DNA from: a virus | Lineage: Duplodnaviria > Heunggongvirae > Uroviricota > Caudoviricetes | Length of the DNA stretch: 9,671 bases | IMG/VR virus record: IMGVR_UViG_2681813205_000018 | Span: 1-9,671 of that record | Direction: 5' to 3' (one strand) | In this document: piece after piece, positions 1 through 9,671 of the stretch | Numbering within the stretch: the first letter of the stretch is position 1 | Layout: each line of letters begins with the position of its first letter | Notes under the pieces: model-generated | Databases searched by the model: none | What the model was told of the DNA's origin: nothing | What the model saw: only the letters and a program-made list of their open reading frames with translations | Program-made: the position numbers and the translations under genes

Positions 1-94
1 CATACGCCTCAGGCTGGCTACTTAACCCCTGACCACTGCCGGGTAACTCGAAGTATTGCCCTGCGTTCTGTGGGGCGGGGTGGGTTTATGGATA

Positions 95-150
95 CAATTT
101 ACAAATTAAAATTTAACTGGTCAACATGTTTATTATTAAATTTGTAATTG
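95..150 (-). promoter_or_regulatory. OL/PL-like operator and leftward promoter region
   Basis: Imperfect inverted repeat CAATTTACAAATTAAA (95-110) / TTAAATTTGTAATTG (136-150). On the minus strand a sigma70-like -35 TTGACC (rc of 119-124) and -10 TAAATT (rc of 96-101) with a 17-nt spacer point leftward out of the window. Shares the exact 14-mer TTAAATTTGTAATT with the repressor/cro intergenic region (1378-1391). Confidence 0.35.
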
Positions 151-192
151 CGGGCTGTTGCATCAGTCCCAAAATGGGACTACTATACAGTT

Positions 193-495
193 ATGAAGAT
201 TATCTCAGTTAAAACACTCAGGGATTTTTGGGCGGAGAATCCTGATGCAGAACAACCGCTAAGGGCATGGGTGGATGAGGCGGCAAAAGCTGACTGGAAA
301 AGCCCAGCAGACATTAAGGCACAATACCGAACGGCCAGTATATTGAAAAACCGGCGCGTGGTATTCAACATAAAAGGTAATCATTACCGTTTAATTGTTG
401 CAATTGCGTATCAGCGAGGATGGGTATTTGTTAAATTCATCGGAAACCACAAGGAATACGATGCTATTGATGCTGATACCATCGAACTGGAGTAA
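193..495 (+). CDS. higB: Type II toxin HigB (RelE-fold mRNA interferase family)
   Basis: Same frame as track ORF 148..495, but started at ATG 193 because the track start is a TTG. About 100 aa. Alignable by eye to E. coli HigB (N-terminal I..K.L.D, central VFN..GN..R.V, C-terminal HKEYD). Toxin-first gene order with an HTH antitoxin gene 2 nt downstream. Confidence 0.8.
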   Translation: MKIISVKTLRDFWAENPDAEQPLRAWVDEAAKADWKSPADIKAQYRTASILKNRRVVFNIKGNHYRLIVAIAYQRGWVFVKFIGNHKEYDAIDADTIELE

Positions 496-497
496 GC

Positions 498-857
498 ATG
501 AACATCAAACCTATTCGTACAGAGCAAGATTATGAAGCCGCGTTGCGTGCTGTTGAACCCATGTTCGACAATGAGCCCGAAATTGACACGCCTGAGGGGG
601 ATTTTTTTGAGGTGATGTGTTTGCTAATAGAGGAATATGAAAAAAAACATTATCCCATTGAGCCACCATCCCCAATTGAAGCTATAAGATTTCGCATGGA
701 ACAGCAGGGGCTGACTGTGAAAGATTTGGAACCCGCAATTGGGAAAAAAAATCGGGTTTATGAGGTGTTGAATGGTACCAGAAGCCTTACGTTACCAATG
801 ATTCGCCGTCTTCATAATCAATTTGGTATCCCCCTGGAAAGCCTGGTTGGATTATAA
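498..857 (+). CDS. higA: Antitoxin HigA (XRE-family HTH)
   Basis: 119-aa ORF starting 2 nt after the higB stop. C-terminal HTH segment LTVKDLEPAIGKKNRVYEVLNGTRSLTLPMIRRLHNQFGIP is alignable to the HigA HTH region. Confidence 0.8.
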   Translation: MNIKPIRTEQDYEAALRAVEPMFDNEPEIDTPEGDFFEVMCLLIEEYEKKHYPIEPPSPIEAIRFRMEQQGLTVKDLEPAIGKKNRVYEVLNGTRSLTLPMIRRLHNQFGIPLESLVGL

Positions 858-872
858 AATCTGCTAGTCATT

Positions 873-921
873 TGCCTGATGCTCGTTCCAGAAAAGGAAT
901 GCATCAGGCAGTTTTGTTTTT
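873..921 (+). terminator. Candidate intrinsic terminator after higBA
   Basis: 10-bp inverted repeat TGCCTGATGC (873-882) / GCATCAGGCA (901-910) with inner TTCC/GGAA pairing, followed by GTTTTGTTTTT. Lies between the convergent higA and repressor genes; the 3' arm overlaps the repressor stop codon. Confidence 0.45.
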
Positions 922-1296
922 CTGCCGCAGTAACTCTTCAAGTTTCCGTTTATAGAAATCGCGTTTTTGCTCCATATCACGAATGATCTGCTCTGCGTCG
1001 CTTTGAGGTAACTCATCTAAAAGCGATATGATTTTTCGTTGTTGTTCTGTAAGTTGCGGTTGGTTGTCATTACTGGATACAGCCATTTTATCGCCGAGAG
1101 TTTCTTCTTCCATAAAGAACCAATGGACGGGATGTTGTGAGAGCTCTGCTAATTTTTCCAGTTTATCCATTCTTGGCATCACGCCTTTCAACCAACCTTG
1201 CACGGATTGGGGTTTTACACCAAGACGTCTTCCCAGCTCTGACTGGTTTATATTCAATTCCTGCAACACCTGCTGAAGGCGTTTTACAAAGATCAT
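904..1296 (-). CDS. Prophage repressor, Cro/CI-type HTH (RacR-like)
   Basis: Minus-strand ORF. ATG at 1294-1296 is preceded by GAGGGG; the track start at 1302 is a GTG. N-terminal HTH QSELGRRLGVKPQSVQGWLKG and a charged helical C-terminal tail resembling RacR-type repressors as I recall them. Divergent from the cro-like gene. Confidence 0.7.
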   Translation of the reverse strand: MIFVKRLQQVLQELNINQSELGRRLGVKPQSVQGWLKGVMPRMDKLEKLAELSQHPVHWFFMEEETLGDKMAVSSNDNQPQLTEQQRKIISLLDELPQSDAEQIIRDMEQKRDFYKRKLEELLRQKNKTA

Positions 1297-1338
1297 CACC
1301 ACCCCTCGTAAACTAGTTCCGCGATCCTACAGAAAAAA

Positions 1339-1395
1339 TTGATAAGTGGCATTACAAATAGAAGTTGAAATTTAAATTTAAATTTGTAATTATCG
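1339..1395 (+). promoter_or_regulatory. OR-like operator/promoter region of the immunity switch
   Basis: Intergenic region between the divergent repressor and ydaS-like genes. Palindromic half-sites TTACAAAT (1352-1359) / ATTTGTAA (1382-1389) around an AAATTTAAATTT core. Candidate rightward promoter: -35 TTGAAA (1365-1370), -10 TAATTA (1387-1392). GGAGGG RBS at 1413-1418 precedes ATG 1423. Confidence 0.4.
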
Positions 1396-1422
1396 GTGTC
1401 ATCGTAAAGTTCGGAGGGAAAC

Positions 1423-1683
1423 ATGCAAAAAAGTACTCAAGTGAAAATCCTGTCAATAATGAGCCAATCAGAATTAGGGCGTCGTCTTGGTAAAACACCG
1501 CAAACCATAAGTGGGTGGTTTAAAAAACGAGTGCCAGCGGAGGAGGTTATACCAGCATGTGAGGCGCTTGACTGGGGAGTAACTCCGCATGAATTGCGCC
1601 CTGATAAATACCCTAATCCAACCGATGGTTTACCTGTTGAGTATCAGGCTAACGCACAAGCAGCGGCGGGAGTTGATTCATGA
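1423..1683 (+). CDS. ydaS: Cro-like HTH regulator, YdaS family
   Basis: 86-aa ORF with a strong RBS and an HTH (SQSELGRRLGKTPQTISGWFKK). Occupies the cro position, divergent from the repressor. Its stop overlaps the next start (ATGA at 1680-1683). Confidence 0.75.
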   Translation: MQKSTQVKILSIMSQSELGRRLGKTPQTISGWFKKRVPAEEVIPACEALDWGVTPHELRPDKYPNPTDGLPVEYQANAQAAAGVDS

Positions 1684-2117
1684 AAATCAAGCATGAGCAC
1701 ATCCGCATGGCGATGAATGCGTGGCTGCTTTATCCGAGGGTAGGGCGCAAAAAAATCGCTGATGATATAGCGACAGCATATTTTGAGCTTGAAATGACTT
1801 ATCCACCAATGCATGACACCTCTACGACAGAGGGTATTGGATTGAACATACAAAATATTTTTCGCTGGCTTGAAAAGGATACGCCTGATGCTGTTGAAAA
1901 AATTCAGGCACTAATTCCAGCTATCCTGACTGTTCTTCCGCGTGAACTGCGTTATCACCTCAGTATTTTTGACACTGTTGAGCGCCGTGCATTACTGGCG
2001 GCCCAGGAAGCGTTGAGCACGGCAATTGATGCGCATGATGATGCAGTCCAGGCAGTTTACCGGAAAGCGTATTTCAGCGACGGCGGGTCATCCGGCGAGT
2101 CTGTTGTGGTGCATTGA
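1680..2117 (+). CDS. ydaT: YdaT-like protein (cII-position, Rac prophage toxic protein family)
   Basis: 145-aa ORF translationally coupled to the ydaS-like gene. N-terminus MKIKHEHI and C-terminal RRALLAAQEALSTAIDAHDDAVQAVYRKAYFS match my recollection of E. coli Rac YdaT. Confidence 0.75.
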   Translation: MKIKHEHIRMAMNAWLLYPRVGRKKIADDIATAYFELEMTYPPMHDTSTTEGIGLNIQNIFRWLEKDTPDAVEKIQALIPAILTVLPRELRYHLSIFDTVERRALLAAQEALSTAIDAHDDAVQAVYRKAYFSDGGSSGESVVVH

Positions 2118-2203
2118 TATTTATGCCAGACCCCTGCTGATTCTGTTGATTGGGGAATCACAGAATATCACCAGAGGATGGTTCGTCACAAGATGAGGCA
2201 ATT

Positions 2204-3214
2204 ATGGCCGCATTACCATACATGCAACTGTACATAGCTGATTACCTGGCTGACACCATGCATTTGTCCGCAGAGGAGCACGGTGCGTATTTGTTGCTGA
2301 TGTTCAATTACTGGCAAACAGGGAAACCAATACCTAAAAACAGGCTGGCAAAAATTTCCCGTCTGACTAACGAGCGATGGGCTGATGTGGAACCATCCTT
2401 GCGGGAGTTTTTTTGCGATAACAGCGATGAATGGGTGCATCTTCGGATTGAGGAAGATCTGGCATCAGTCAGGGAAAAATTGACCAAAAAATCAGCCGCC
2501 GGAAAAGCATCTGTTCAGGCCAGAAGAAGCAGAAAGGAAGCATATGTTCAAACAAAACAAGAGAGAGATTTAACAGGTGTTCAAACAAATGTTGGTGTTG
2601 TGTTTGAACATGACGCAAACACAAAAGCAACTAATAAAGATACAGATCTAAAAGAATTAAACCCCACACATAACGTGCGTGAACGCGAGAGTATTCCGAC
2701 CAGTGAGTCGCATGGTGCGCCGTTGCAGACAGCCGAACCTGAATACCTGGACGGCATGAGCGAACCGATCGGGAAATTTTCGATGACTACTGTCTGGCAG
2801 CCGTCGCCGGATTTTCGACAACGGGCAGCAGTGTGGGGTATGGCTCTGCCTGAGCCGGAATTTACACCTGCTGAGCTTGCCGCATTCCGGGATTACTGGA
2901 TGGCGGAGGGGAAGGTTTTCACGCAGGTTCAGTGGGAGCAGAAATTTGCCCGCCACGTGCAGCACGTCAGGGCACAGGTAAAACCAGTCAGCAAGGGGGT
3001 AAGCCATGCAGCATCAGGTGGCACGGCATCACGGGCAGTTCAGGAAATCCGGGCAGCACGCGAACAGTGGGAACGTGAAAACGGATTTATCAGCAACGGA
3101 AACGGCCTGGAAGCTGTGGGAGCTTATGGGGGAGGTGTATTCGAACCGCTGGACTCAGAAGAACGGGGCCGCACCTTCGAAGCTCTGGATTGCCCAGATT
3201 GGTGCGATGACTGA
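2204..3214 (+). CDS. ydaU: Replication initiator, O-like (YdaU/DUF1376 N-terminal domain + DnaT-like C-terminal domain)
   Basis: Frame of track ORF 2150..3214, which starts at a TTG. Chosen start is ATG 2204 (MAALPYMQLYIADYL) with GAGG 7 nt upstream. N-terminal DUF1376-type domain, a low-complexity linker, and a C-terminal FTPAELAAFRDYWMAEG segment resembling the DnaT DNA-binding domain. Immediately precedes the P-like gene. Confidence 0.7.
   Translation: MAALPYMQLYIADYLADTMHLSAEEHGAYLLLMFNYWQTGKPIPKNRLAKISRLTNERWADVEPSLREFFCDNSDEWVHLRIEEDLASVREKLTKKSAAGKASVQARRSRKEAYVQTKQERDLTGVQTNVGVVFEHDANTKATNKDTDLKELNPTHNVRERESIPTSESHGAPLQTAEPEYLDGMSEPIGKFSMTTVWQPSPDFRQRAAVWGMALPEPEFTPAELAAFRDYWMAEGKVFTQVQWEQKFARHVQHVRAQVKPVSKGVSHAASGGTASRAVQEIRAAREQWERENGFISNGNGLEAVGAYGGGVFEPLDSEERGRTFEALDCPDWCDD
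2545..2610. repeat. Candidate origin iterons inside the O-like gene
   Basis: 10-mer TGTTCAAACA occurs directly at 2545 and 2578 and inverted (TGTTTGAACA) at 2601, followed by an A-rich stretch (2615-2660). Lies in the inter-domain linker of the O-like initiator, as ori-lambda lies within O. Confidence 0.3.
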
Positions 3215-3668
3215 ACAGCAAATCCGTCTGGTCTGCCGTCAGTGCATGGACCGCTGCCGGGCGGGTGAAACGTGGCCCCCGGACCTGGCTGAGTTTGTTG
3301 CGCTGATTTCGGAGAGTGGGGCAAATCCATTTGGTCTTACGGTGGATGCCGTGATGGAAGAGTACCGGCGCTGGCGCAATGAATCCTGGCGATACGACGG
3401 GAGTGATAAATACCCGTGGCCACAGCCTGTGCTGTACCACATCTGCCTCGAAATGCGTACCAGAGGGATTGAGCGCCAGATGACGCAGGGTGAGTTAAAA
3501 CTACTTGCAGAACGGCAACTGACGAAATGGGCAAAGCATGTTGGTAACGGGATGAGTGTTCCGCCAGTGCGACGACAACTGGAAGGGGCGAAACACCCGC
3601 AAGGGCCAACGCCAATTGAGCGGCTGAAACAGGAATACGAACGCCGGAAGGCAGCTGGTTTTATTTGA
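3126..3668 (+). CDS. Replication protein P-like (DnaB helicase loader)
   Basis: By-eye alignment to lambda P as I recall it: PPDLAEFVA vs PSPGQFVA, YPW motif, and a C-terminal LT..EL...A...L.......G...P.PV.Q pattern. Start is uncertain: ATG 3126 (GGGAG upstream) is chosen; ATG 3006 would overlap the O-like gene by about 200 nt; ATG 3207 overlaps the O stop. Confidence 0.6.
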   Translation: MGEVYSNRWTQKNGAAPSKLWIAQIGAMTEQQIRLVCRQCMDRCRAGETWPPDLAEFVALISESGANPFGLTVDAVMEEYRRWRNESWRYDGSDKYPWPQPVLYHICLEMRTRGIERQMTQGELKLLAERQLTKWAKHVGNGMSVPPVRRQLEGAKHPQGPTPIERLKQEYERRKAAGFI

Positions 3669-3701
3669 ATCTGAGAAACGATTTTGTCGGAGGAAATTTT
3701 A

Positions 3702-4418
3702 ATGGAAACCGTATTTGACGCACTGAAAGCACTGAAAAGAGCCTCTTCACAGGTAGTGGCGGCCCGCCTTGGAATCAGCCGTGAAGATGCGGTCAACGAA
3801 CTGTGGAAACTGAAGCGCCGCGGTGAAGCGGATAACAAGGGGTCGATGTGGTGGCTGATTCAGGCTGGTGAAAGTGAACCGGTGTCACCGGTACCGAAAG
3901 TGACAGCGCAAATGCTGACTGAGGCGATTGAACAACATGGCCCACAAACGGCGGATGAGCTGGCACTGATGTTCGGGATTACCTCCCGCCGGGCGAATTC
4001 ATCGCTGGCCATGGTAATCAGCAAAGGGCGTCTGATTCGCGTGAATCAGGGCGGTAAATTTCGTTACTGCATACCGGGCGCTGATTTACCGGCAGAGCCG
4101 GAAGCTGCATCCGTAGCGGAAACCGATGGTAAAGCCTTTCCTCAGCCAGCAGGTGTTGCGTTACCAGCTCGGGAAGCAGAAACACAGGAAGAAATAAAAA
4201 CGGAAAGTGTGGCGGTCACAGTGCAGTCACAGCCGTCGTTCACCAGAAAGCATCCGGATGGTCTGATTTTACCATCGCTGCATGTGGCTAACCGCGAGCT
4301 GCGCCGGGCAAAAGGTCAGGTTCAGAAGTGGGAGCGAGTCTGCGCCGCGCTGCGGGAGCTGAACAAGTGCCGGGATATTCTCCGGGATATTACCGCCACC
4401 AGAGAACAGCAGCGGTGA
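3702..4418 (+). CDS. Hypothetical phage protein with two winged-helix-like segments
   Basis: Track ORF 3684..4418 starts at a TTG. ATG 3702 has GGAGG 7 nt upstream. Two HTH-like stretches ([20 protein letters not shown] and [22 protein letters not shown]). Family not recognised. Confidence 0.55.
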
Positions 4419-4450
4419 GTGGGTGGAAGACGTGGTGCCGGGCGGAAATC

Positions 4451-4732
4451 ATGATACTCCGGCAGTGTGCGGGAACGATGAAGGTAAAAAGCGTTGGCGC
4501 ACTTATCGGACGAACTGAAGCGGCAGTGAGAACGAAGGCACGGGAGCTGGGCATCAGCATGATGTTACGTGGTGATTTTCACCCGTCGGCAAAATATTCT
4601 CAGCGTGATATTGAGCTGGCGCGGCAACTGCATCAGAGAGGCATGCAAAGAAGGGAAATTGCCAGAAAATTAGGCATGCCGCTGCGCATAGTGAATAACT
4701 ACGTTTATTTCGACAGGAGGGTGTCTGCGTGA
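4451..4732 (+). CDS. Hypothetical small HTH protein
   Basis: Track ORF 4328..4732 starts at a GTG and overlaps the previous gene. First in-frame ATG after the upstream stop is 4451; ATG 4478 is an alternative. C-terminal QRREIARKLGMPLRIV resembles a sigma-70 region 4 / resolvase-type HTH. Confidence 0.45.
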   Translation: MILRQCAGTMKVKSVGALIGRTEAAVRTKARELGISMMLRGDFHPSAKYSQRDIELARQLHQRGMQRREIARKLGMPLRIVNNYVYFDRRVSA

Positions 4733-4956
4733 AAATCCTGTATCAGGATTACGGCCCGGTGGGGCAGGTGGTTATCAGCAGTACTGTAATGGAGTTTCGG
4801 AAGCATAACCGTGTGGTGGATGCTGTGCTGTTAACCTGTCCGGGGATATCGGCGAGTCGTGCAGGTGTGTTTATTATGAAGACGAAATTATATGGCAGTA
4901 AGGCGTGGATAAAGAAGGCGTATCGTGTAGCGTTGCAGGAGGTTAACAGTGAGTGA
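4729..4956 (+). CDS. Hypothetical protein
   Basis: GTG start at 4729 overlaps the upstream stop (GTGA) and has AGGAGGG 8 nt upstream. 75 aa. No recognisable family. Confidence 0.45.
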   Translation: MKILYQDYGPVGQVVISSTVMEFRKHNRVVDAVLLTCPGISASRAGVFIMKTKLYGSKAWIKKAYRVALQEVNSE

Positions 4957-5260
4957 AATTAAAGAAATGCCGGTAGTTCGTGACGGATATGGCTACTGGA
5001 CACATCCTGAATATGAAAAATTCTGTGATGGTCGGGAATATATTTCAACGGAAGAGTTTAACGCCTGGATGGAGGAAAATAATCTTCAATACGTCCTCTG
5101 CTTCAGAGATGAAGGATGTGCTGACCTTGATGCGTGTGATGCTGATATTTCTGCATGGGAACCGGAACGACCAGAGGGCGATGGCTGGTTTATTGGTTCC
5201 ATTCATGATACGGAAGATGGCCCGGTTTGTGTCTGGTTGCGAAATAAGGCTGAAGCATAA
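4949..5260 (+). CDS. Hypothetical acidic phage protein
   Basis: GTG start at 4949 with AGGAGG 6 nt upstream, overlapping the previous stop. 103 aa, Cys/Asp-rich. The competing track ORF 4980..5285 is in another frame and lacks an RBS. Confidence 0.5.
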   Translation: MSEIKEMPVVRDGYGYWTHPEYEKFCDGREYISTEEFNAWMEENNLQYVLCFRDEGCADLDACDADISAWEPERPEGDGWFIGSIHDTEDGPVCVWLRNKAEA

Positions 5261-5359
5261 AGGCGATAAACCAACTAACAACTAAATACTGAAGATTTAA
5301 ATCAGAAACGATTTTTATTAAATCCTTAACCGGAGGGATTCCTGCACCCTCAGAACATC

Positions 5360-5390
5360 AGGAGGCCGCCCGAAAGGGCGGTAAGAAATG
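5360..5390 (+). promoter_or_regulatory. Shine-Dalgarno plus hairpin translation-initiation structure
   Basis: AGGAGG (5360-5365) lies 22 nt upstream of ATG 5388, but a 6-7 bp GC hairpin (CCGCCC 5366-5371, GAAA loop, GGGCGG 5376-5381) between them would bring the SD to about 6 nt from the start codon when folded. Confidence 0.4.
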
Positions 5391-5606
5391 AAACATTATT
5401 TAGAAAAAAATTACCCACGAAAGAGCAGAACAACAGAGTTTCTGTTTTTCATTCTGTTTATAGTGTTGATGATACCGATATCCCCGCTATTACTGGTCTG
5501 GATAATTGGAAGGACATTTGAACCAGTTATTGAGCTATATACCGATGTGACATGGGAATCATTCAGCGCACTGCACAATAAAATTAATCCGTATAAGGAA
5601 AACTGA
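5388..5606 (+). CDS. Small single-pass membrane protein (hypothetical)
   Basis: 72-aa ORF in a visibly AT-rich segment. One strongly hydrophobic stretch, FLFFILFIVLMIPISPLLLVWIIG, after a basic N-terminus. Confidence 0.5.
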   Translation: MKHYLEKNYPRKSRTTEFLFFILFIVLMIPISPLLLVWIIGRTFEPVIELYTDVTWESFSALHNKINPYKEN

Positions 5607-5607
5607 T

Positions 5608-6165
5608 ATGAGCACTATTACCAGAGAACGCGCGGAGATTAAATCATACATCACAGGCTTCCTGAGCGACTCGGCGCACGATAACAAGTCTTCAGACAGC
5701 CTGCTGGCTAATGTGTTTCGTATCGCGCTGGCATCACTGGAAGCAGAGCCGATAGCAATGGTAGTGCCTGATGAAATGGATTTGCTTACCTGCCATCTCG
5801 ACGGTGTAACTAAAACATATGCTGATGGCTGGAACGCCTGCCGCGTCGCCATGCTTCAGGCCGGAAACTTTCGGGAAAATAAGAATTCGTCAACCAACAA
5901 TTTTCGGGAAATCTCGGAAACGTCAACCAGATCTCCGATAACTCTGGATGGCTGGATAAGCTGTACTGAGCGAATGCCTGAAAAGAGCCAGAACGTGCTT
6001 ATTTCGATGAATATCGATAGCGAGGCTGGGCCATTAATATATTCCGCACGCTATCTCGGAGGCACGTTCCGGCGCGGAGGTATAGCAGTTAGTCCGGGTA
6101 ATGATCTTAGGCAAGCAACCCACTGGATGTCGCTACCAGAACCGCCGCAGGAGGTGAATCAATGA
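5608..6165 (+). CDS. DUF551 domain-containing phage protein
   Basis: ATG 5608 is 1 nt after the upstream stop, with AAGGA upstream. C-terminal WISCTERMPE...THWMSLPEPP matches the DUF551 signature as I recall it. Confidence 0.65.
   Translation: MSTITRERAEIKSYITGFLSDSAHDNKSSDSLLANVFRIALASLEAEPIAMVVPDEMDLLTCHLDGVTKTYADGWNACRVAMLQAGNFRENKNSSTNNFREISETSTRSPITLDGWISCTERMPEKSQNVLISMNIDSEAGPLIYSARYLGGTFRRGGIAVSPGNDLRQATHWMSLPEPPQEVNQ
5866..5931 (+). repeat. Imperfect 33-bp tandem duplication inside the DUF551 gene
   Basis: AACTTTCGGGAAAATAAGAATTCGTCAACCAAC (5866-5898) and AATTTTCGGGAAATCTCGGAAACGTCAACCAGA (5899-5931). Encodes an 11-aa repeat NFRENKNSSTN / NFREISETSTR. Confidence 0.6.
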
Positions 6166-6245
6166 CCTGGCCTGAAGCATTCACAACGGTAGGAATTGCG
6201 ATGGCGGTGGCGCTGGTGGTGTATTCGATTTGCCGCTGGGGATAA
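6162..6245 (+). CDS. Unannotated 27-aa hydrophobic peptide
   Basis: ATG 6162 overlaps the DUF551 stop (ATGA) and has AGGAGG 8 nt upstream (6148-6153). Encodes MTWPEAFTTVGIAMAVALVVYSICRWG, a single predicted TM helix. Absent from the ORF track because of its length. Confidence 0.35.
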   Translation: MTWPEAFTTVGIAMAVALVVYSICRWG

Positions 6246-6503
6246 AAACGGTTTGCGGGAAAAGGATAGTTAAGTAGAATTGCAGCGGGTGCTTGAGGCT
6301 ATCTGCCTCGGGCATGAACACCAACGGCAGATAGAGAAAAGCCCCAGTTAACATTACGCGTCCTGCAAGACGCTTAACATTAATCTGAGGCTCAATCCAT
6401 GCTGAACACATGTAGGTTAGCCTCTTACGTGCCGAAAGGCAAGGAGAAGCAGGCTATTGTTAACACCAAGCTGTAATGTCCCCTTTGAACCATTCTAAAA
6501 TGT

Positions 6504-6530
6504 CCCCAGACAATTCTCTGGGGGATTTTT
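6504..6530 (+). terminator. Terminator-like hairpin immediately upstream of the transposase start
   Basis: Perfect 7-bp stem CCCCAGA (6504-6510) / TCTGGGG (6517-6523) with a 6-nt loop, then ATTTTTC, ending 1 nt before ATG 6532. Confidence 0.4.
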
Positions 6531-6531
6531 C

Positions 6532-7872
6532 ATGATCAAAGAGACTGTTACGATGAGTCATAAGGAACTCCACCGACTTCAGATTATTCAGGAGTCAATT
6601 AATCGACATATTACTCAGGAACAAGCTGCGGCACGCATTGGCATTTCTATTCGGCAGGTTAAACGTCTGGTGCAACGGTATAGAAATGAAGGGCCTTCTG
6701 GTCTGGTTTCCCACCGACGTGGAAAGCGTCCTAATAATTCCTTTTCTACTGAATTCAGAGCAACAGTAATTTCACTCCTCAAAGGCCGTTACGCTGATTT
6801 TGGACCTACGTTTGCGTGCGAAAAATTGCGCGAGATACACGGTTTATCTTTATCCGTTGAAACTCTCAGAAAGTGGATGATAGAAGAGGGGTTATGGCGT
6901 GAACGCCGTCGTAAAATTGCCCGTATATATCAACGCCGCATGCGACGACCATCTTACGGTGAACTGATCCAGATTGATGGCTCACCTCATGACTGGTTTG
7001 AAAATCGAGGCCCCAGATGTACACTGATCGTTTTCATTGATGATGCCACCAGTGCGTTGATGGCGTTGCGTTTTGTGCCTGCTGAAACAACCCGGGCTTA
7101 CATGGAAACCCTCCGGGGTTACCTTGATGATCATGGCGTACCGCTCGCTCTCTACTCTGATAGACACAGTATATTCAGGGTAAATAACCCAGAGCGGGAA
7201 GGTGAGCTGACCCAGTTCACTCGTGCGATAAAGACACTGGGCATCGAGCCAATCCATGCCAACAGCCCGCAGGCAAAAGGGCGGGTAGAGCGCGCCAATC
7301 AGACACTACAGGACAGGCTGGTCAAAGAAATGCGGCTTCAGAATATCAGTGATATTGAAACAGCAAATGCATGGTTGCCGACCTTTATTGAAGCCTATAA
7401 CAACCGGTTCGCTACGTCGCCTCGTACTACTGATAATGCTCATCTTGATGTGCACCATTCTGAAGAGGAACTGGGTTATATCTTCAGCCTACAGGCGAAG
7501 CGCGTTCTGTCTAAAAATCTCACTTTCCAGTACAAAAGCAGTGCGTTTCAGGTACGCAGTGAGGGCCGGGGATATCGACTTAGGCATTCGGTTGTTACTG
7601 TATGCGAGAACTTTGACGGTGAAATTAACGTTCTGTATGACGGGAAAGCGCTGGGCTGGGAAAAGTATGTTGATGGCCCGGAGCCTATACCACTGGATGA
7701 TGAAAAGAGTGTCCATGAACGAGTGGATAATGCCCGTATTGATTTACGCTCAAAATACTATGTTAAACCTAAAGCTGACCATCCCTGGCTTACGCGCCGA
7801 ACGCAAAGTCATCAGCAAGTTAAGCCCCCGAAGTTACCTAAAAAGAAGCCTGATCCCGATAAAATAGATTGA
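6532..7872 (+). CDS. DDE transposase, IS481/ISNCY-like (rve integrase core, N-terminal HTH)
   Basis: 446-aa ORF. N-terminal HTH (ITQEQAAARIGISIRQVKRLVQRY). Catalytic triad candidates in LIQIDGS, LYSDRHS and AKGRVERANQ with integrase-like spacing. Pattern resembles IS481-family transposases (IVFIDDATS..., PQAKGRVE). Alternative start ATG 6553. Confidence 0.8.
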   Translation: MIKETVTMSHKELHRLQIIQESINRHITQEQAAARIGISIRQVKRLVQRYRNEGPSGLVSHRRGKRPNNSFSTEFRATVISLLKGRYADFGPTFACEKLREIHGLSLSVETLRKWMIEEGLWRERRRKIARIYQRRMRRPSYGELIQIDGSPHDWFENRGPRCTLIVFIDDATSALMALRFVPAETTRAYMETLRGYLDDHGVPLALYSDRHSIFRVNNPEREGELTQFTRAIKTLGIEPIHANSPQAKGRVERANQTLQDRLVKEMRLQNISDIETANAWLPTFIEAYNNRFATSPRTTDNAHLDVHHSEEELGYIFSLQAKRVLSKNLTFQYKSSAFQVRSEGRGYRLRHSVVTVCENFDGEINVLYDGKALGWEKYVDGPEPIPLDDEKSVHERVDNARIDLRSKYYVKPKADHPWLTRRTQSHQQVKPPKLPKKKPDPDKID

Positions 7873-7926
7873 AACCAAGATCGATTCGGTTGAGTGCATA
7901 TCCATTCATAGGGTAGATTCTTAAGT

Positions 7927-7993
7927 CGCGTTTCTGGTGTTCATTTTCGGGGGGGGGGGTTACTTGTTTTACCGGGGATATGCCAGAAACGCG
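7927..7993. repeat. Perfect 11-bp inverted repeat enclosing a G11 homopolymer
   Basis: CGCGTTTCTGG (7927-7937) and its exact reverse complement CCAGAAACGCG (7983-7993), separated by 45 nt that contain eleven consecutive G (7949-7959). Confidence 0.6.
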
Positions 7994-8190
7994 CTGAGTC
8001 AGTCTGGGCGGTGCGCGTAATGGGACGTTATGGTAAATACCATTCTGCAATAACTATCCATGTATAGATCATCCTTTATCTCCGTATGGCATAACCCATC
8101 AGAATCCATTAAGCATGACAAAACCTTCTTTATAAATAGCACTTTCAGTAGTACTTGATGTAGAAAATTGATTGGCATTTGTGTTTTTAC

Positions 8191-8219
8191 TTGATATCTC
8201 CGTGATATACTGATATTAA
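8191..8219 (+). promoter_or_regulatory. Candidate sigma70 promoter for the two-gene cassette
   Basis: -35 TTGATA (8191-8196), 17-nt spacer, -10 TATTAA (8214-8219) in an AT-rich intergenic region about 50 nt upstream of ATG 8273. Confidence 0.3.
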
Positions 8220-8272
8220 TTAAAGCGTAAATTATCTAAAACTAGATTTTCAATATGTTATAGGTGGTTCAA

Positions 8273-8806
8273 ATGCCAGGTACTAGGTGTGTTACTGTTC
8301 TTACTGCTCGTGGAATTACTGAGATTTTAAAAACAGGTGGAAGCAAAGCCTGGAGACTCAATGCAACCCATGCAGGAAAATGTTCGTATGTTGTTTGCGT
8401 TCAGAACTCGAAGATTGATTGGGGAACCCAGGAGGCAAAGCATCACCATGCTTTTATGATTGGCCGTATTTCTGGGATTAGCAGGATTCCAGACCATCCC
8501 AAGAAGCGTTGGATAATCAACATTGATTCTTATGCTGAGATTGATATCCCTGACCAATGGGATGGAAACCGGAATCCGGTTTCTTACCGAAACCTTGAGG
8601 ATATGGGGATAGATCTTGATACTCTCGATTTTAAACCTGTTGGTCATATTGTATCTGGAATAAAACAGACTAGTGGTGACGAATACGATGAGTATGAAGA
8701 AGTTGATGTCAGCGATAGACCTTTAAGCCTGAAAGAAGCTAAGGCTGGTCTAGCACTTCATTTTGGCGTCAATGAGGATGACATTCAGATCACTATTAAG
8801 GGGTGA
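8273..8806 (+). CDS. Hypothetical protein (unrecognised family; first gene of IS-flanked cassette)
   Basis: ATG 8273 with AGGTGG 5 nt upstream; the track start at 8264 is a GTG. 177 aa: basic N-terminal domain of about 120 aa, acidic linker (DEYDEYEEVDVSD), short C-terminal segment (LSLKEAKAGLALHFGVNEDDIQITIKG). AT-rich codon usage unlike the flanking phage genes. Confidence 0.6.
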   Translation: MPGTRCVTVLTARGITEILKTGGSKAWRLNATHAGKCSYVVCVQNSKIDWGTQEAKHHHAFMIGRISGISRIPDHPKKRWIINIDSYAEIDIPDQWDGNRNPVSYRNLEDMGIDLDTLDFKPVGHIVSGIKQTSGDEYDEYEEVDVSDRPLSLKEAKAGLALHFGVNEDDIQITIKG

Positions 8807-8811
8807 CCTTT

Positions 8812-9396
8812 ATGGAATCATTCTCTGTTGAGCATTGGTTACCACAGGCTACTGCTGGAGATAGTCAGGCTAGATTTTATTTGGGGAAGATATTCTCATG
8901 CGGGCTGGGTGTTCATCAGGATTATAAGCTGGCTATATACTGGTTTCAGCTTGCAGCGGAGCAAGGCCATGATGATGCCCAGTTTAATCTTGGGTGGGTA
9001 TATCATTTGGGGTTAGGTGGATATAAACATGTCCAAAAAGCGTCTGAATGGTATCAGAAGGCCGCTCTGCAAGGTCATGCAGAGGCTCAGTTTCATCTAG
9101 GAAGGCTGTATGCTTTCTCTTATTTAAGAAATGATGGGCTTGCAGTTGAATGGTTTCTCTGTGCCGCGAAGCAAGGCTATAGTAGTGCGCAATTTAAACT
9201 TGGCTGGATGTATCATCTCGGTATGGGCGTTGAGCAAAGTGACAGGCAGGCTTTCCATTGGTTTATTCGGGCTGCTGAGCAAGATCATGCAGGGGCTCAG
9301 GCATCTCTTGGTGAGATGTATAAGCATGGGTGGGGAGTCGAGCAAGACGAAACGATGGCACAGTATTGGTTTCGACTCGCAAGAACAATGCCATAG
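8812..9396 (+). CDS. Sel1-repeat (TPR-like) protein
   Basis: ATG 8812 with AAGGGG 8 nt upstream, 5 nt after the upstream stop. At least five tandem Sel1-type repeats (e.g. AIYWFQLAAEQGHDDAQFNLGWVYHLGLG; ASEWYQKAALQGHAEAQFHLGRLY; AFHWFIRAAEQDHAGAQASLGEMYKHGWGV). No signal peptide evident. Confidence 0.8.
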   Translation: MESFSVEHWLPQATAGDSQARFYLGKIFSCGLGVHQDYKLAIYWFQLAAEQGHDDAQFNLGWVYHLGLGGYKHVQKASEWYQKAALQGHAEAQFHLGRLYAFSYLRNDGLAVEWFLCAAKQGYSSAQFKLGWMYHLGMGVEQSDRQAFHWFIRAAEQDHAGAQASLGEMYKHGWGVEQDETMAQYWFRLARTMP

Positions 9397-9400
9397 CATC

Positions 9401-9424
9401 AAGCCCGCCCTGCGGGCTTTTTTA
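9401..9424 (+). terminator. Rho-independent terminator of the cassette
   Basis: 8-bp stem AAGCCCGC (9401-9408) / GCGGGCTT (9412-9419) with a 3-nt loop, followed by a T-run, 5 nt after the Sel1 gene stop. Confidence 0.7.
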
Positions 9425-9671
9425 TGTGTCAAGGCTAAGTTCAGATGTCCGTCGTAGGGCAAAGTTCAAATGTCCTCTCTGTGCCTATAACCTCTTCTGA
9501 GTAAAAGGTGAGGTGTACTGGCAATAGCGGACACTACCATTTGTTCTTTTTTTAAGCAGCCATCTGATGATATTTTTCCCTGAAGGCTGCCGGGGAGATA
9601 TTCCCCAGACGAGAGTGACGACGCTGACGATTGTAGAAAATCTCAATGTATTCCCGTATTACTGAGATGGC
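9425..9671 (-). mobile_element. IS3-family insertion sequence, 3' end (continues beyond window)
   Basis: Contains the C-terminal end of an IS3-family OrfB on the minus strand. Plus-strand TGTGTCAAGG at 9425 is consistent with an IS3-type ...CA terminus. Subterminal direct repeats AAGTTCAGATGTCC (9438-9450) / AAGTTCAAATGTCC (9463-9476). Exact end not established. Confidence 0.45.
9552..9671 (-). CDS. IS3-family transposase OrfB, C-terminal fragment (truncated by window edge)
   Basis: Minus-strand translation from the window edge reads AISVIREYIEIFYNRQRRHSRLGNISPAAFREKYHQMAA then stop (plus 9552-9554). The FYNRQRRHS.LG..SP..F motif is the conserved C-terminus of IS3-family OrfB transposases. 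Confidence 0.7.
   Translation of the reverse strand, partial: AISVIREYIEIFYNRQRRHSRLGNISPAAFREKYHQMAA

Follow-up and report, generated by a model that had tools for sequence, protein, structure and literature searches.

A predicted HigB/HigA toxin-antitoxin cassette in the rexAB-equivalent slot of a Rac/Qin-type prophage immunity region, with a probable role in addiction

The rexAB genes of phage lambda are co-transcribed with cI, and in relatives the corresponding slot is already known to hold toxin-antitoxin (TA) or defence cargo. The paaR2-paaA2-parE2 module of prophage CP-933P is addictive, is embedded in the immunity circuit and stabilises plasmids, and its paaA2-parE2 genes have been suggested to keep the immunity region from being replaced by recombination (PMC8630535). 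HigBAC of Escherichia coli NT1F31, whose 218-aa HigA carries a ChAD at residues 122 to 218, defends against lambda-vir and Bas25; its phage sensor consists of the HigA ChAD tail and a SecB-like chaperone, for which gpV competes, and once deprived of the ChAD its HigBA becomes an inert, stably neutralised pair. In PD-lambda-2, an abortive infection system acting against lambda-vir, a HigA-like helix-turn-helix (HTH) domain is fused to an ImmA/IrrE peptidase (about 400 aa) to form the toxic B part, which is rescued by A, and a third gene, C, related to a P4 antitoxin, is needed for defence (PMC9519451; Vassallo et al. 2022). Finally, the higBA pair of E. coli K-12 is autoregulated by HigA (PMC2814082; see also PMC11980606) and induced through Lon (PMC2814082). 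Here we examine a higBA pair in a 9,671-nt stretch of viral DNA (Caudoviricetes; positions 1 to 9,671 of IMG/VR record IMGVR_UViG_2681813205_000018), hereafter called the window. The HigB family is known, and RefSeq already annotates a "type II toxin-antitoxin system HigB family toxin" at the copy of this locus in E. coli O26/O103; a literature search by RefSeq protein accession returned no publication on this particular module. What our analysis adds is a family-wide operator and leaderless-promoter signature, the boundaries of the cassette, its linkage to one immunity type and a comparison of what fills the slot.

We favour, at a probability of about 0.6, the reading that the pair is a functional, self-contained type II TA cassette lodged in the immunity cassette of a defective Rac/Qin-type prophage and that its role is primarily addiction. 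On the plus strand, higB (193-495) encodes a 100-aa toxin of the RelE superfamily and the PF09907 family, and higA (498-857) encodes a 119-aa antitoxin with a C-terminal XRE-type HTH. HigB matches the full length of the Pfam HigB_toxin profile with 113.7 bits (E 4.8e-33; gathering threshold, 27 bits), while residues 63 to 115 of HigA match HTH_3 with 27.1 bits (cut-off, 23 bits). Sequence search of the PDB gave significant matches to the K-12 HigB and HigA structures only: HigB aligns from residue 1 with K-12 HigB (5IFG/5YCL/6KML; phmmer E about 3e-7), and HigA residues 6 to 112 match K-12 HigA (5IFG_B; phmmer E 3e-9). An NCBIfam search with both proteins returned zero matches. The toxin-first HigB/HigA pair proposed by the initial annotation is thus borne out by the Pfam and PDB matches at exactly these coordinates, and we regard it, by these protein matches, as an intact two-gene cassette of the PF09907 type (K-12 YgjN/YgjM). 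The two open reading frames (ORFs) lie on the same strand with a gap of 2 nt, and a candidate ribosome site for higA, GGAG at 489-492, is found 5 nt ahead of its ATG; from the gap and this site, translation of higA appears to be coupled to that of higB.

Alignment of 81 HigB sequences, comprising the window protein, its homologues from 79 loci of other genomes and K-12 HigB, revealed seven residues that are 100% conserved, F58, N59, G62, N63, R66, H86 and Y89, all of which are present in the window protein together with D90, conserved at 94%. They line up with K-12 F60, N61, G64, N65, R68, H88 and Y91, and D90 with D92, and we consider these family-invariant positions putative active-site residues. 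Loss of the conserved residues on proper alignment, which had been named as the observation that would speak against the toxin assignment, was not seen, since every family-invariant residue is retained. A further possibility is that the pair is a decaying, non-functional remnant in a cryptic prophage, as could be expected from the state of its host element, where the integrase is frameshifted in the O26 11368 prophage and an insertion sequence (IS) is present in the window. We find this very improbable: both ORFs are unbroken in every copy examined, and the invariant residues, promoter and operator are conserved. Moreover, when codon changes were counted against two diverged E. coli copies (DNA identity, 96.5% and 94.1%), synonymous changes outnumbered non-synonymous ones by 5:1 and 9:3 in higB and by 13:1 and 16:3 in higA, and since the changes are mostly synonymous, both genes are under purifying selection. 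A longer higB ORF starting at TTG 148 was considered and rejected because K-12 HigB and the homologues of 80 loci align from ATG 193 and because the promoter and operator described below would fall inside the extension.

The module appears to have a promoter, an operator and a terminator of its own. A candidate -35 element, TTGCAT (158-163, plus strand), is followed after 17 nt by a candidate -10 element, TACTAT (181-186, plus strand), which lies 6 nt ahead of the ATG at 193; across three diverged E. coli copies the -35 reads TTGCAT/TTGAAT/TTGTAA, with an invariant TTG, and the -10 reads TACTAT/TAACAT/TATCAT, retaining TAnnAT. Inside the spacer sits the palindrome GTCCCAaaaTGGGAC (166-180), a predicted operator for HigA or HigBA, whose GTCCC-N5-GGGAC core is unchanged in the diverged copies L002 and L003 while positions between the conserved promoter elements vary. 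To place this arrangement in its family we scanned one genome per species, which gave more than 525 HigB relatives, and retained 80 loci, with identities of 84-88% in Enterobacterales and down to 53-60% in Bacteroidota, Chloroflexota and Cyanobacteria. Of these loci, which come from many phyla, 72 have a T[CA]CC-N5-GG[GT]A palindrome at most 75 nt upstream of higB, against a background in the same loci of 0.0024 per 75 nt. A TAnnnT hexamer ends 4 to 8 nt ahead of the start codon in 47/80 loci, and the full pattern TTGnnn-N16-18-TAnnnT-N4-8-start is present at 31 of 74 homologous loci versus 0.2% of control ATGs. The layout with the palindrome in the spacer between TTGnnn and TAnnnT characterises proteobacterial loci and several other phyla; in Bacteroidota the palindrome instead sits ahead of a TAnnTTTG motif, which we take to be the -7 promoter element of Bacteroidetes. 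A distal second palindrome, at about -58 to -42, occurs in 6/80 homologues, several of them enterobacterial. We infer from this conservation that the TTGCAT/TACTAT pair is the higBA promoter, that HigA or HigBA would repress it by binding the 166-180 palindrome and that the higB mRNA would be leaderless or nearly so, starting at or next to the ATG; the same operator within a start-abutting promoter predicts leaderless higB mRNAs across phyla.

Downstream, a hairpin at 872-910 followed by GTTTTGTTTTTCT forms a probable intrinsic terminator (872-923, plus strand), identified as an inverted repeat and by folding; the hairpin reaches into the convergent repressor gene, covering its stop codon and final codons, and the fold of -25.5 kcal/mol (z -3.5) was matched in stability by 0 of 200 shuffled sequences. 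A simple promoter and terminator scan detected neither of these signals: the promoter was recovered by comparative alignment and the terminator by folding, the scan accepting loops of 3 to 8 nt only and hence missing the hairpin. DNA similarity to enterobacterial copies of other genera spans positions 165 to 850 only, and no homologue of the phage repressor or of Cro was found near the higBA loci of those genera, which suggests that higBA is a cassette of about 700 bp captured by the phage. Given a promoter, an operator and a terminator of its own, its expression would be autonomous and not PRM-driven like that of rexAB.

The surroundings of the pair constitute, by gene content and predicted regulatory sites, what reads as a lambdoid immunity region of the Rac/Qin type. 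Positions 1-86 (minus strand) are a conserved left-flank segment that probably forms the beginning of the early leftward (PL) transcript. A PL-like promoter (TTGACC, 17 nt, TAAATT; 96-124, minus strand), found by promoter scan as a consensus match and assigned by analogy, is overlain by an OL-like operator at 99-116 (minus strand), an exact copy of the 18-nt motif TTAAATTTNAATTTGTAA with 0 mismatches and a 94% inverted match to 1372-1389. A second OL-like operator at 130-148 (plus strand; 3 mismatches to the motif, 86% to 1371-1391) lies between the divergent PL-like and higBA promoters and is conserved in L002 and L003. With at most 3 mismatches the motif has 6 matches in the window versus 0.04 expected, all of them at 99-147 or 1352-1389. 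The latter interval holds the OR-like operators, a 40-bp near-palindrome overlapping a PR-like (1365-1393, plus strand) and a PRM-like (1402->1375, minus strand) promoter, both from the promoter scan; the PL-like and PR-like sites share the same operator-over-spacer layout. Between these two control regions the minus strand encodes a DicA-like repressor (904-1296, RefSeq coordinates), which has an HTH_3 domain only, without an S24 peptidase domain, and matches the NCBIfam DicA subfamily below its cut-off. To the right, a Cro/YdaS-like regulator (1423-1683, plus strand; Pfam YdaS_toxin/HTH_3) stands close to where the immunity cassette ends on the right and is followed by a YdaT (CII-like) gene (1680-2117) and, further right, by genes for an O-like protein (DUF1376 plus a DnaT domain) and for P replication functions, as detected by Pfam. 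In the related prophage CP-933P, YdaS is the Cro analogue, YdaT is the CII analogue, and PL933P takes a position analogous to that of the PL-like promoter of the window (PMC8630535).

The location of higBA between the OL/PL-like region (96-149) and the 3' end of the repressor gene, that is, in the rexAB slot, was proposed by the initial annotation and is confirmed by the operator matches and the promoter scan. The equivalence to rexAB that it drew stands for position and fails for mode of expression, as higBA, on the plus strand, is convergent with the minus-strand repressor gene and is served by a promoter and a terminator of its own. It had further suggested that the promoter may be under prophage repressor control, and the promoter anatomy does not support this, with a HigA-type palindrome in the core and the operator at 130-148 ending 10 bp before the -35; such control is possible but not indicated. 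In its fuller version this idea holds that the repressor, bound at the OL-like operator 130-148, represses or activates the higBA promoter, so that TA levels report the repressor state and the module acts at induction or superinfection. The proximity of that operator to the -35 fits, as does its position at -63 to -46, about where several enterobacterial homologues carry the distal HigA palindrome, and the TA genes in the CP-933P slot are fully wired into the CI/Cro/CII-like circuit. On the other hand, the operator is clear of the -35, spacer and -10, the core promoter retains the family's own operator, the divergent PL-like promoter fully explains the operator placement and the distal palindrome is found in just 6 of the 80 homologues, so that we judge coupling to lysogeny unlikely.

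Positions 1 to 2200 of the window are 100% identical to a prophage of enterohaemorrhagic E. coli (EHEC) O26/O103, for example in O26:H11 11368 and O103:H2 12009; in the O26 genome the left of the region continues with ydfC, dicB and an exonuclease gene, all on the minus strand. In a set of 5,426 complete E. coli genomes, 148 contain higBA (150-870), at 149 places, and the same two numbers hold for the segment with the repressor and OR (880-1425), the linkage being a comparison of counts and not of genome lists. Within this collection, at least, higBA is a fixed part of this immunity cassette. The left-flank segment 1-86 occurs with 89-98% identity in about 3030 of the 5426 genomes, whereas the full 1-160 match is confined to 148, and the homology with other immunity types breaks at about 86-87, where the operators begin; no Rfam family matches 1-86 at the gathering threshold. 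This segment is probably the PL transcript leader, and immunity cassettes probably have their left recombination boundary there. Because the integrase is frameshifted in O26 11368 and the window contains an IS, the prophage looks defective. Positions 5200 to 9671 are contiguous in no complete E. coli genome of the collection, with a coverage of at most 44%. To the right of the replication genes, the source of the window is therefore unlike the reference prophages of O26/O103.

In the mechanism that we propose, HigB, a RelE-fold toxin, would block translation, most probably by ribosome-dependent mRNA cleavage as judged from its family, and HigA would bind and neutralise it. Through its C-terminal HTH, HigA would also repress the operon at GTCCC-N5-GGGAC between the -35 and -10, as the conservation of the palindrome suggests; the transcription start would coincide with the A of the higB ATG or adjoin it, so that the mRNA is leaderless, and the transcript would end at the predicted hairpin overlapping the end of the convergent repressor gene. 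If the cassette or the prophage were lost or replaced, whether through a deletion or through recombination with a heteroimmune phage, the labile HigA would be lost and HigB would poison the cell, and addiction would in this way hold higBA and the repressor together. We favour addiction because higBA is co-inherited with the repressor, because paaA2-parE2 sets a precedent in this slot, because the prophage looks defective and because TA modules are slow to activate passively, type II systems taking at least 1 h in single cells, longer than a phage cycle (PMC10899753). The experimentally studied relatives, among them the addictive paaA2-parE2, likewise lend support to the earlier suggestion that TA modules in this slot are plausible addiction or abortive-infection functions.

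Four observations weigh against this interpretation. The closest characterised slot or family relatives with a function shown in phage biology, HigBAC and PD-lambda-2, are defence systems and not addiction systems. The -35 TTGCAT agrees with the consensus at 3/6 positions only, and the promoter escaped the simple scan. As many as 136 of the 148 higBA copies are at least 99% identical, so recent common ancestry could yield the equal counts and explains much of the linkage between higBA and the repressor. Finally, the HigB-like toxin SehA of Salmonella was reported to inhibit RNase III and not to cleave mRNA (PMC12817084), which means that the molecular target in the HigB family is not fully settled.

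The corresponding slot of H-19B, of many Stx1a phages and of Stx2a_WGPS9, which are lambdoid Stx phages in the strict sense, bears on the question of defence. There, three co-oriented genes between cI and N encode a PF09907 HigB 42% identical to that of the window, a 218-aa HigA-like protein 43% identical to the window HigA over its residues 9 to 120 and a protein matching SecB-like chaperone profiles; in Stx2a_WGPS9 (L088, 3501-4842) the third protein matches PADLOC PD-T4-9_C (3e-11). By its composition this trio corresponds to HigBAC as described for E. coli NT1F31. Upstream of it are two TTCCC-N5-GGGAA palindromes, and modules of this type are carried by 88 complete E. coli genomes. In the original H-19B GenBank record the region of the trio (L089, 3001-4400) bears no annotation.

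These relatives speak for seeing the window module as an equivalent of rexAB in abortive infection or phage exclusion, in which infection, through shut-off of host transcription or through depletion or displacement of HigA by a phage factor, would free HigB and the lysogen would halt translation before the invader completes its cycle. To the slot and to the protection given by HigBAC of NT1F31 against lambda-vir and Bas25 and by PD-lambda-2 against lambda-vir may be added the PADLOC search, where HigB matched PD-Lambda-2_A (1e-40) and HigA matched PD-Lambda-2_B (1.7e-42), the latter at positions 1-119 of 402 only. However, what HigBAC needs, the ChAD and the SecB-like chaperone, and what PD-lambda-2 needs, the third gene and the peptidase-fused B, are all absent from the window module, since HigA ends at residue 119 and the gene that follows is the convergent repressor, with no co-oriented ORF there; passive antitoxin decay, as noted above, is reportedly too slow for the phage cycle (PMC10899753). 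Among the partner proteins at the 80 homologous loci nearly all have 116 to 153 aa and one (L047) has about 400 aa, so members of the HigB family of the window normally take the two-gene form. We consider a module devoted to exclusion the main alternative, though clearly less probable than addiction, and a contribution to the exclusion of superinfecting phages possible but secondary. A sensor-less two-gene module that defends against phages would be more interesting if true, but the evidence does not favour it.

The five best HigBAC matches, in E2865, RM10386, RM8426, 2014C-3057 and 2012C-4606, are in genomes that also carry the window higBA. This raises the idea that the window HigA, having no ChAD and requiring no chaperone, cross-binds the operators or the toxin of the HigBAC of a co-resident Stx phage and damps it, acting as an anti-addiction or anti-defence element. 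The operator cores are similar, GTCCC-N5-GGGAC in the window versus the two TTCCC-N5-GGGAA palindromes, and the 43% identity between the HigA proteins extends across the whole neutralising and HTH region. Yet TA paralogues as a rule do not cross-neutralise at identities as low as 42-43%, and the co-occurrence may merely mirror the O26/O103 EHEC lineages; we regard such cross-talk as improbable. A related conjecture, which we would call a long shot, is that a phage-repressor operator has replaced the distal HigA operator and, together with the operator core common with HigBAC, makes the locus a node that couples the TA module to lysogeny and cross-regulates or disarms the defence of another prophage. 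If true, it would reveal regulatory cross-talk between TA modules of different EHEC prophages.

Other prophages with the same flank differ in what they carry at this position. In the prophage of E. coli O157:H7 N8B7-2 (L004, 3708-4571), ParE_toxin and PaaA2 genes lie downstream of, and co-oriented with, a repressor-like gene; these genes form the paaR2-paaA2-parE2 locus that Jurenas et al. investigated, and RefSeq labels its PaaR2 equivalent a "hypothetical protein" and its antitoxin "RelB family". The slot is empty in the three other same-flank Rac/Qin-type prophages that we examined, of O104:H4, ST648 (racR) and O155 strains. The rexAB-equivalent slot of Rac/Qin-type prophages is thus a variable cargo site, empty or filled by paaA2-parE2 or higBA, with HigBAC in the corresponding slot of H-19B-type phages, and it should be useful for mining defence and addiction genes in EHEC prophages. 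With TA module and immunity type at equal counts, 148 genomes each, the locus lends itself to a natural test of whether TAs guard immunity cassettes against recombinational swaps.

Further TA modules and accessory genes were observed elsewhere in these prophages. In E. coli A34 (L003, 1676-2238) a RelE/ParE toxin, a Phd/YefM antitoxin and a "tRNA-OTHER" feature lie between kil/Rha and the immunity region, and since the left arm of the A34 prophage carries this additional TA, prophages of this type seem to accumulate several such modules. A ParD/ParE-family TA is located about 8 kb to the right of higBA in O26:H11 11368 (L001, 20419-20981), in a region that is replaced in the window. The window itself contains at 6287-6458 (plus strand) a match to Rfam RF01794, the sok antitoxin of the hok/sok type I TA (107.7 bits; gathering score, 59), a second and unrelated TA of the prophage fragment just upstream of the IS. 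The IS gene at 6532-7872 (plus strand) encodes a 446-aa transposase with HTH domains and an rve_3 integrase core, and similar E. coli copies are annotated as "IS1202-like element ISEsa1 family transposase". Next to it, the plus-strand genes 8264-8806, encoding a 180-aa protein without a Pfam or PADLOC match, and 8803-9396, encoding a 197-aa protein with five Sel1 repeats, overlap each other and are possibly accessory cargo.

Compared with the systems described so far, the window module shares with K-12 HigB-HigA (YgjN-YgjM) the toxin-first bicistron, the Pfam family of the toxin, its invariant residues, the C-terminal HTH of the antitoxin and a single upstream promoter with an inverted repeat (PMC2814082). 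The two pairs are only remotely similar in sequence (phmmer E 3e-7 with HigB, 3e-9 with HigA), and the window higBA belongs to a distinct, widespread subfamily with a TCCC-N5-GGGA operator and a -10 abutting the start codon; it is also prophage-borne, whereas the K-12 pair is a chromosomal core locus.

With HigBAC it has in common a HigB of the same family, the 43% identity of HigA over residues 9 to 120, the slot between the repressor and PL/N and the TCCC-N5-GGGA core of the palindromes. However, the HigA of the window has 119 aa versus 218 aa and lacks the ChAD, the window has no gene for a SecB-like chaperone, and its higBA runs opposite to the repressor gene whereas HigBAC is co-oriented with cI. 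Membership in the HigBAC or toxin-antitoxin-chaperone (TAC) class was rejected, since the window HigA ends at the equivalent of residue 120 of the HigBAC HigA and no SecB-like chaperone is encoded in the window, and because ChAD and chaperone are absent, phage sensing via gpV and the chaperone cannot apply. Membership in PD-lambda-2 was likewise rejected, as neither the C-terminal ImmA/IrrE peptidase (profile positions 120-402) nor a third gene is present.

CP-933P/Sp12 of O157:H7 is a prophage of the same type (YdaS/YdaT, dicB and the conserved left flank) with a TA in the same slot, beside PL/OL. Its toxin ParE is an unrelated gyrase poison, its antitoxin has no DNA-binding domain and its TA genes are co-transcribed with and regulated by the CI-like PaaR2, whereas the window TA is convergent with the repressor and has its own HTH antitoxin, operator and promoter. 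Lambda rexA-rexB, lastly, resembles the window module in lying between the repressor gene and PL/OL and in having an accessory function rather than one in the lysis-lysogeny decision. The Pfam matches of the two window proteins are HigB_toxin and HTH_3 only, with none to the Rex families; rexAB is expressed with the repressor from PRM, whereas higBA and the repressor gene occupy opposite strands and higBA has a predicted promoter and terminator to itself; and lambda Rex is a membrane ion channel with a sensor, whereas the HigB of the window would be a cytoplasmic toxin of the RNase type.

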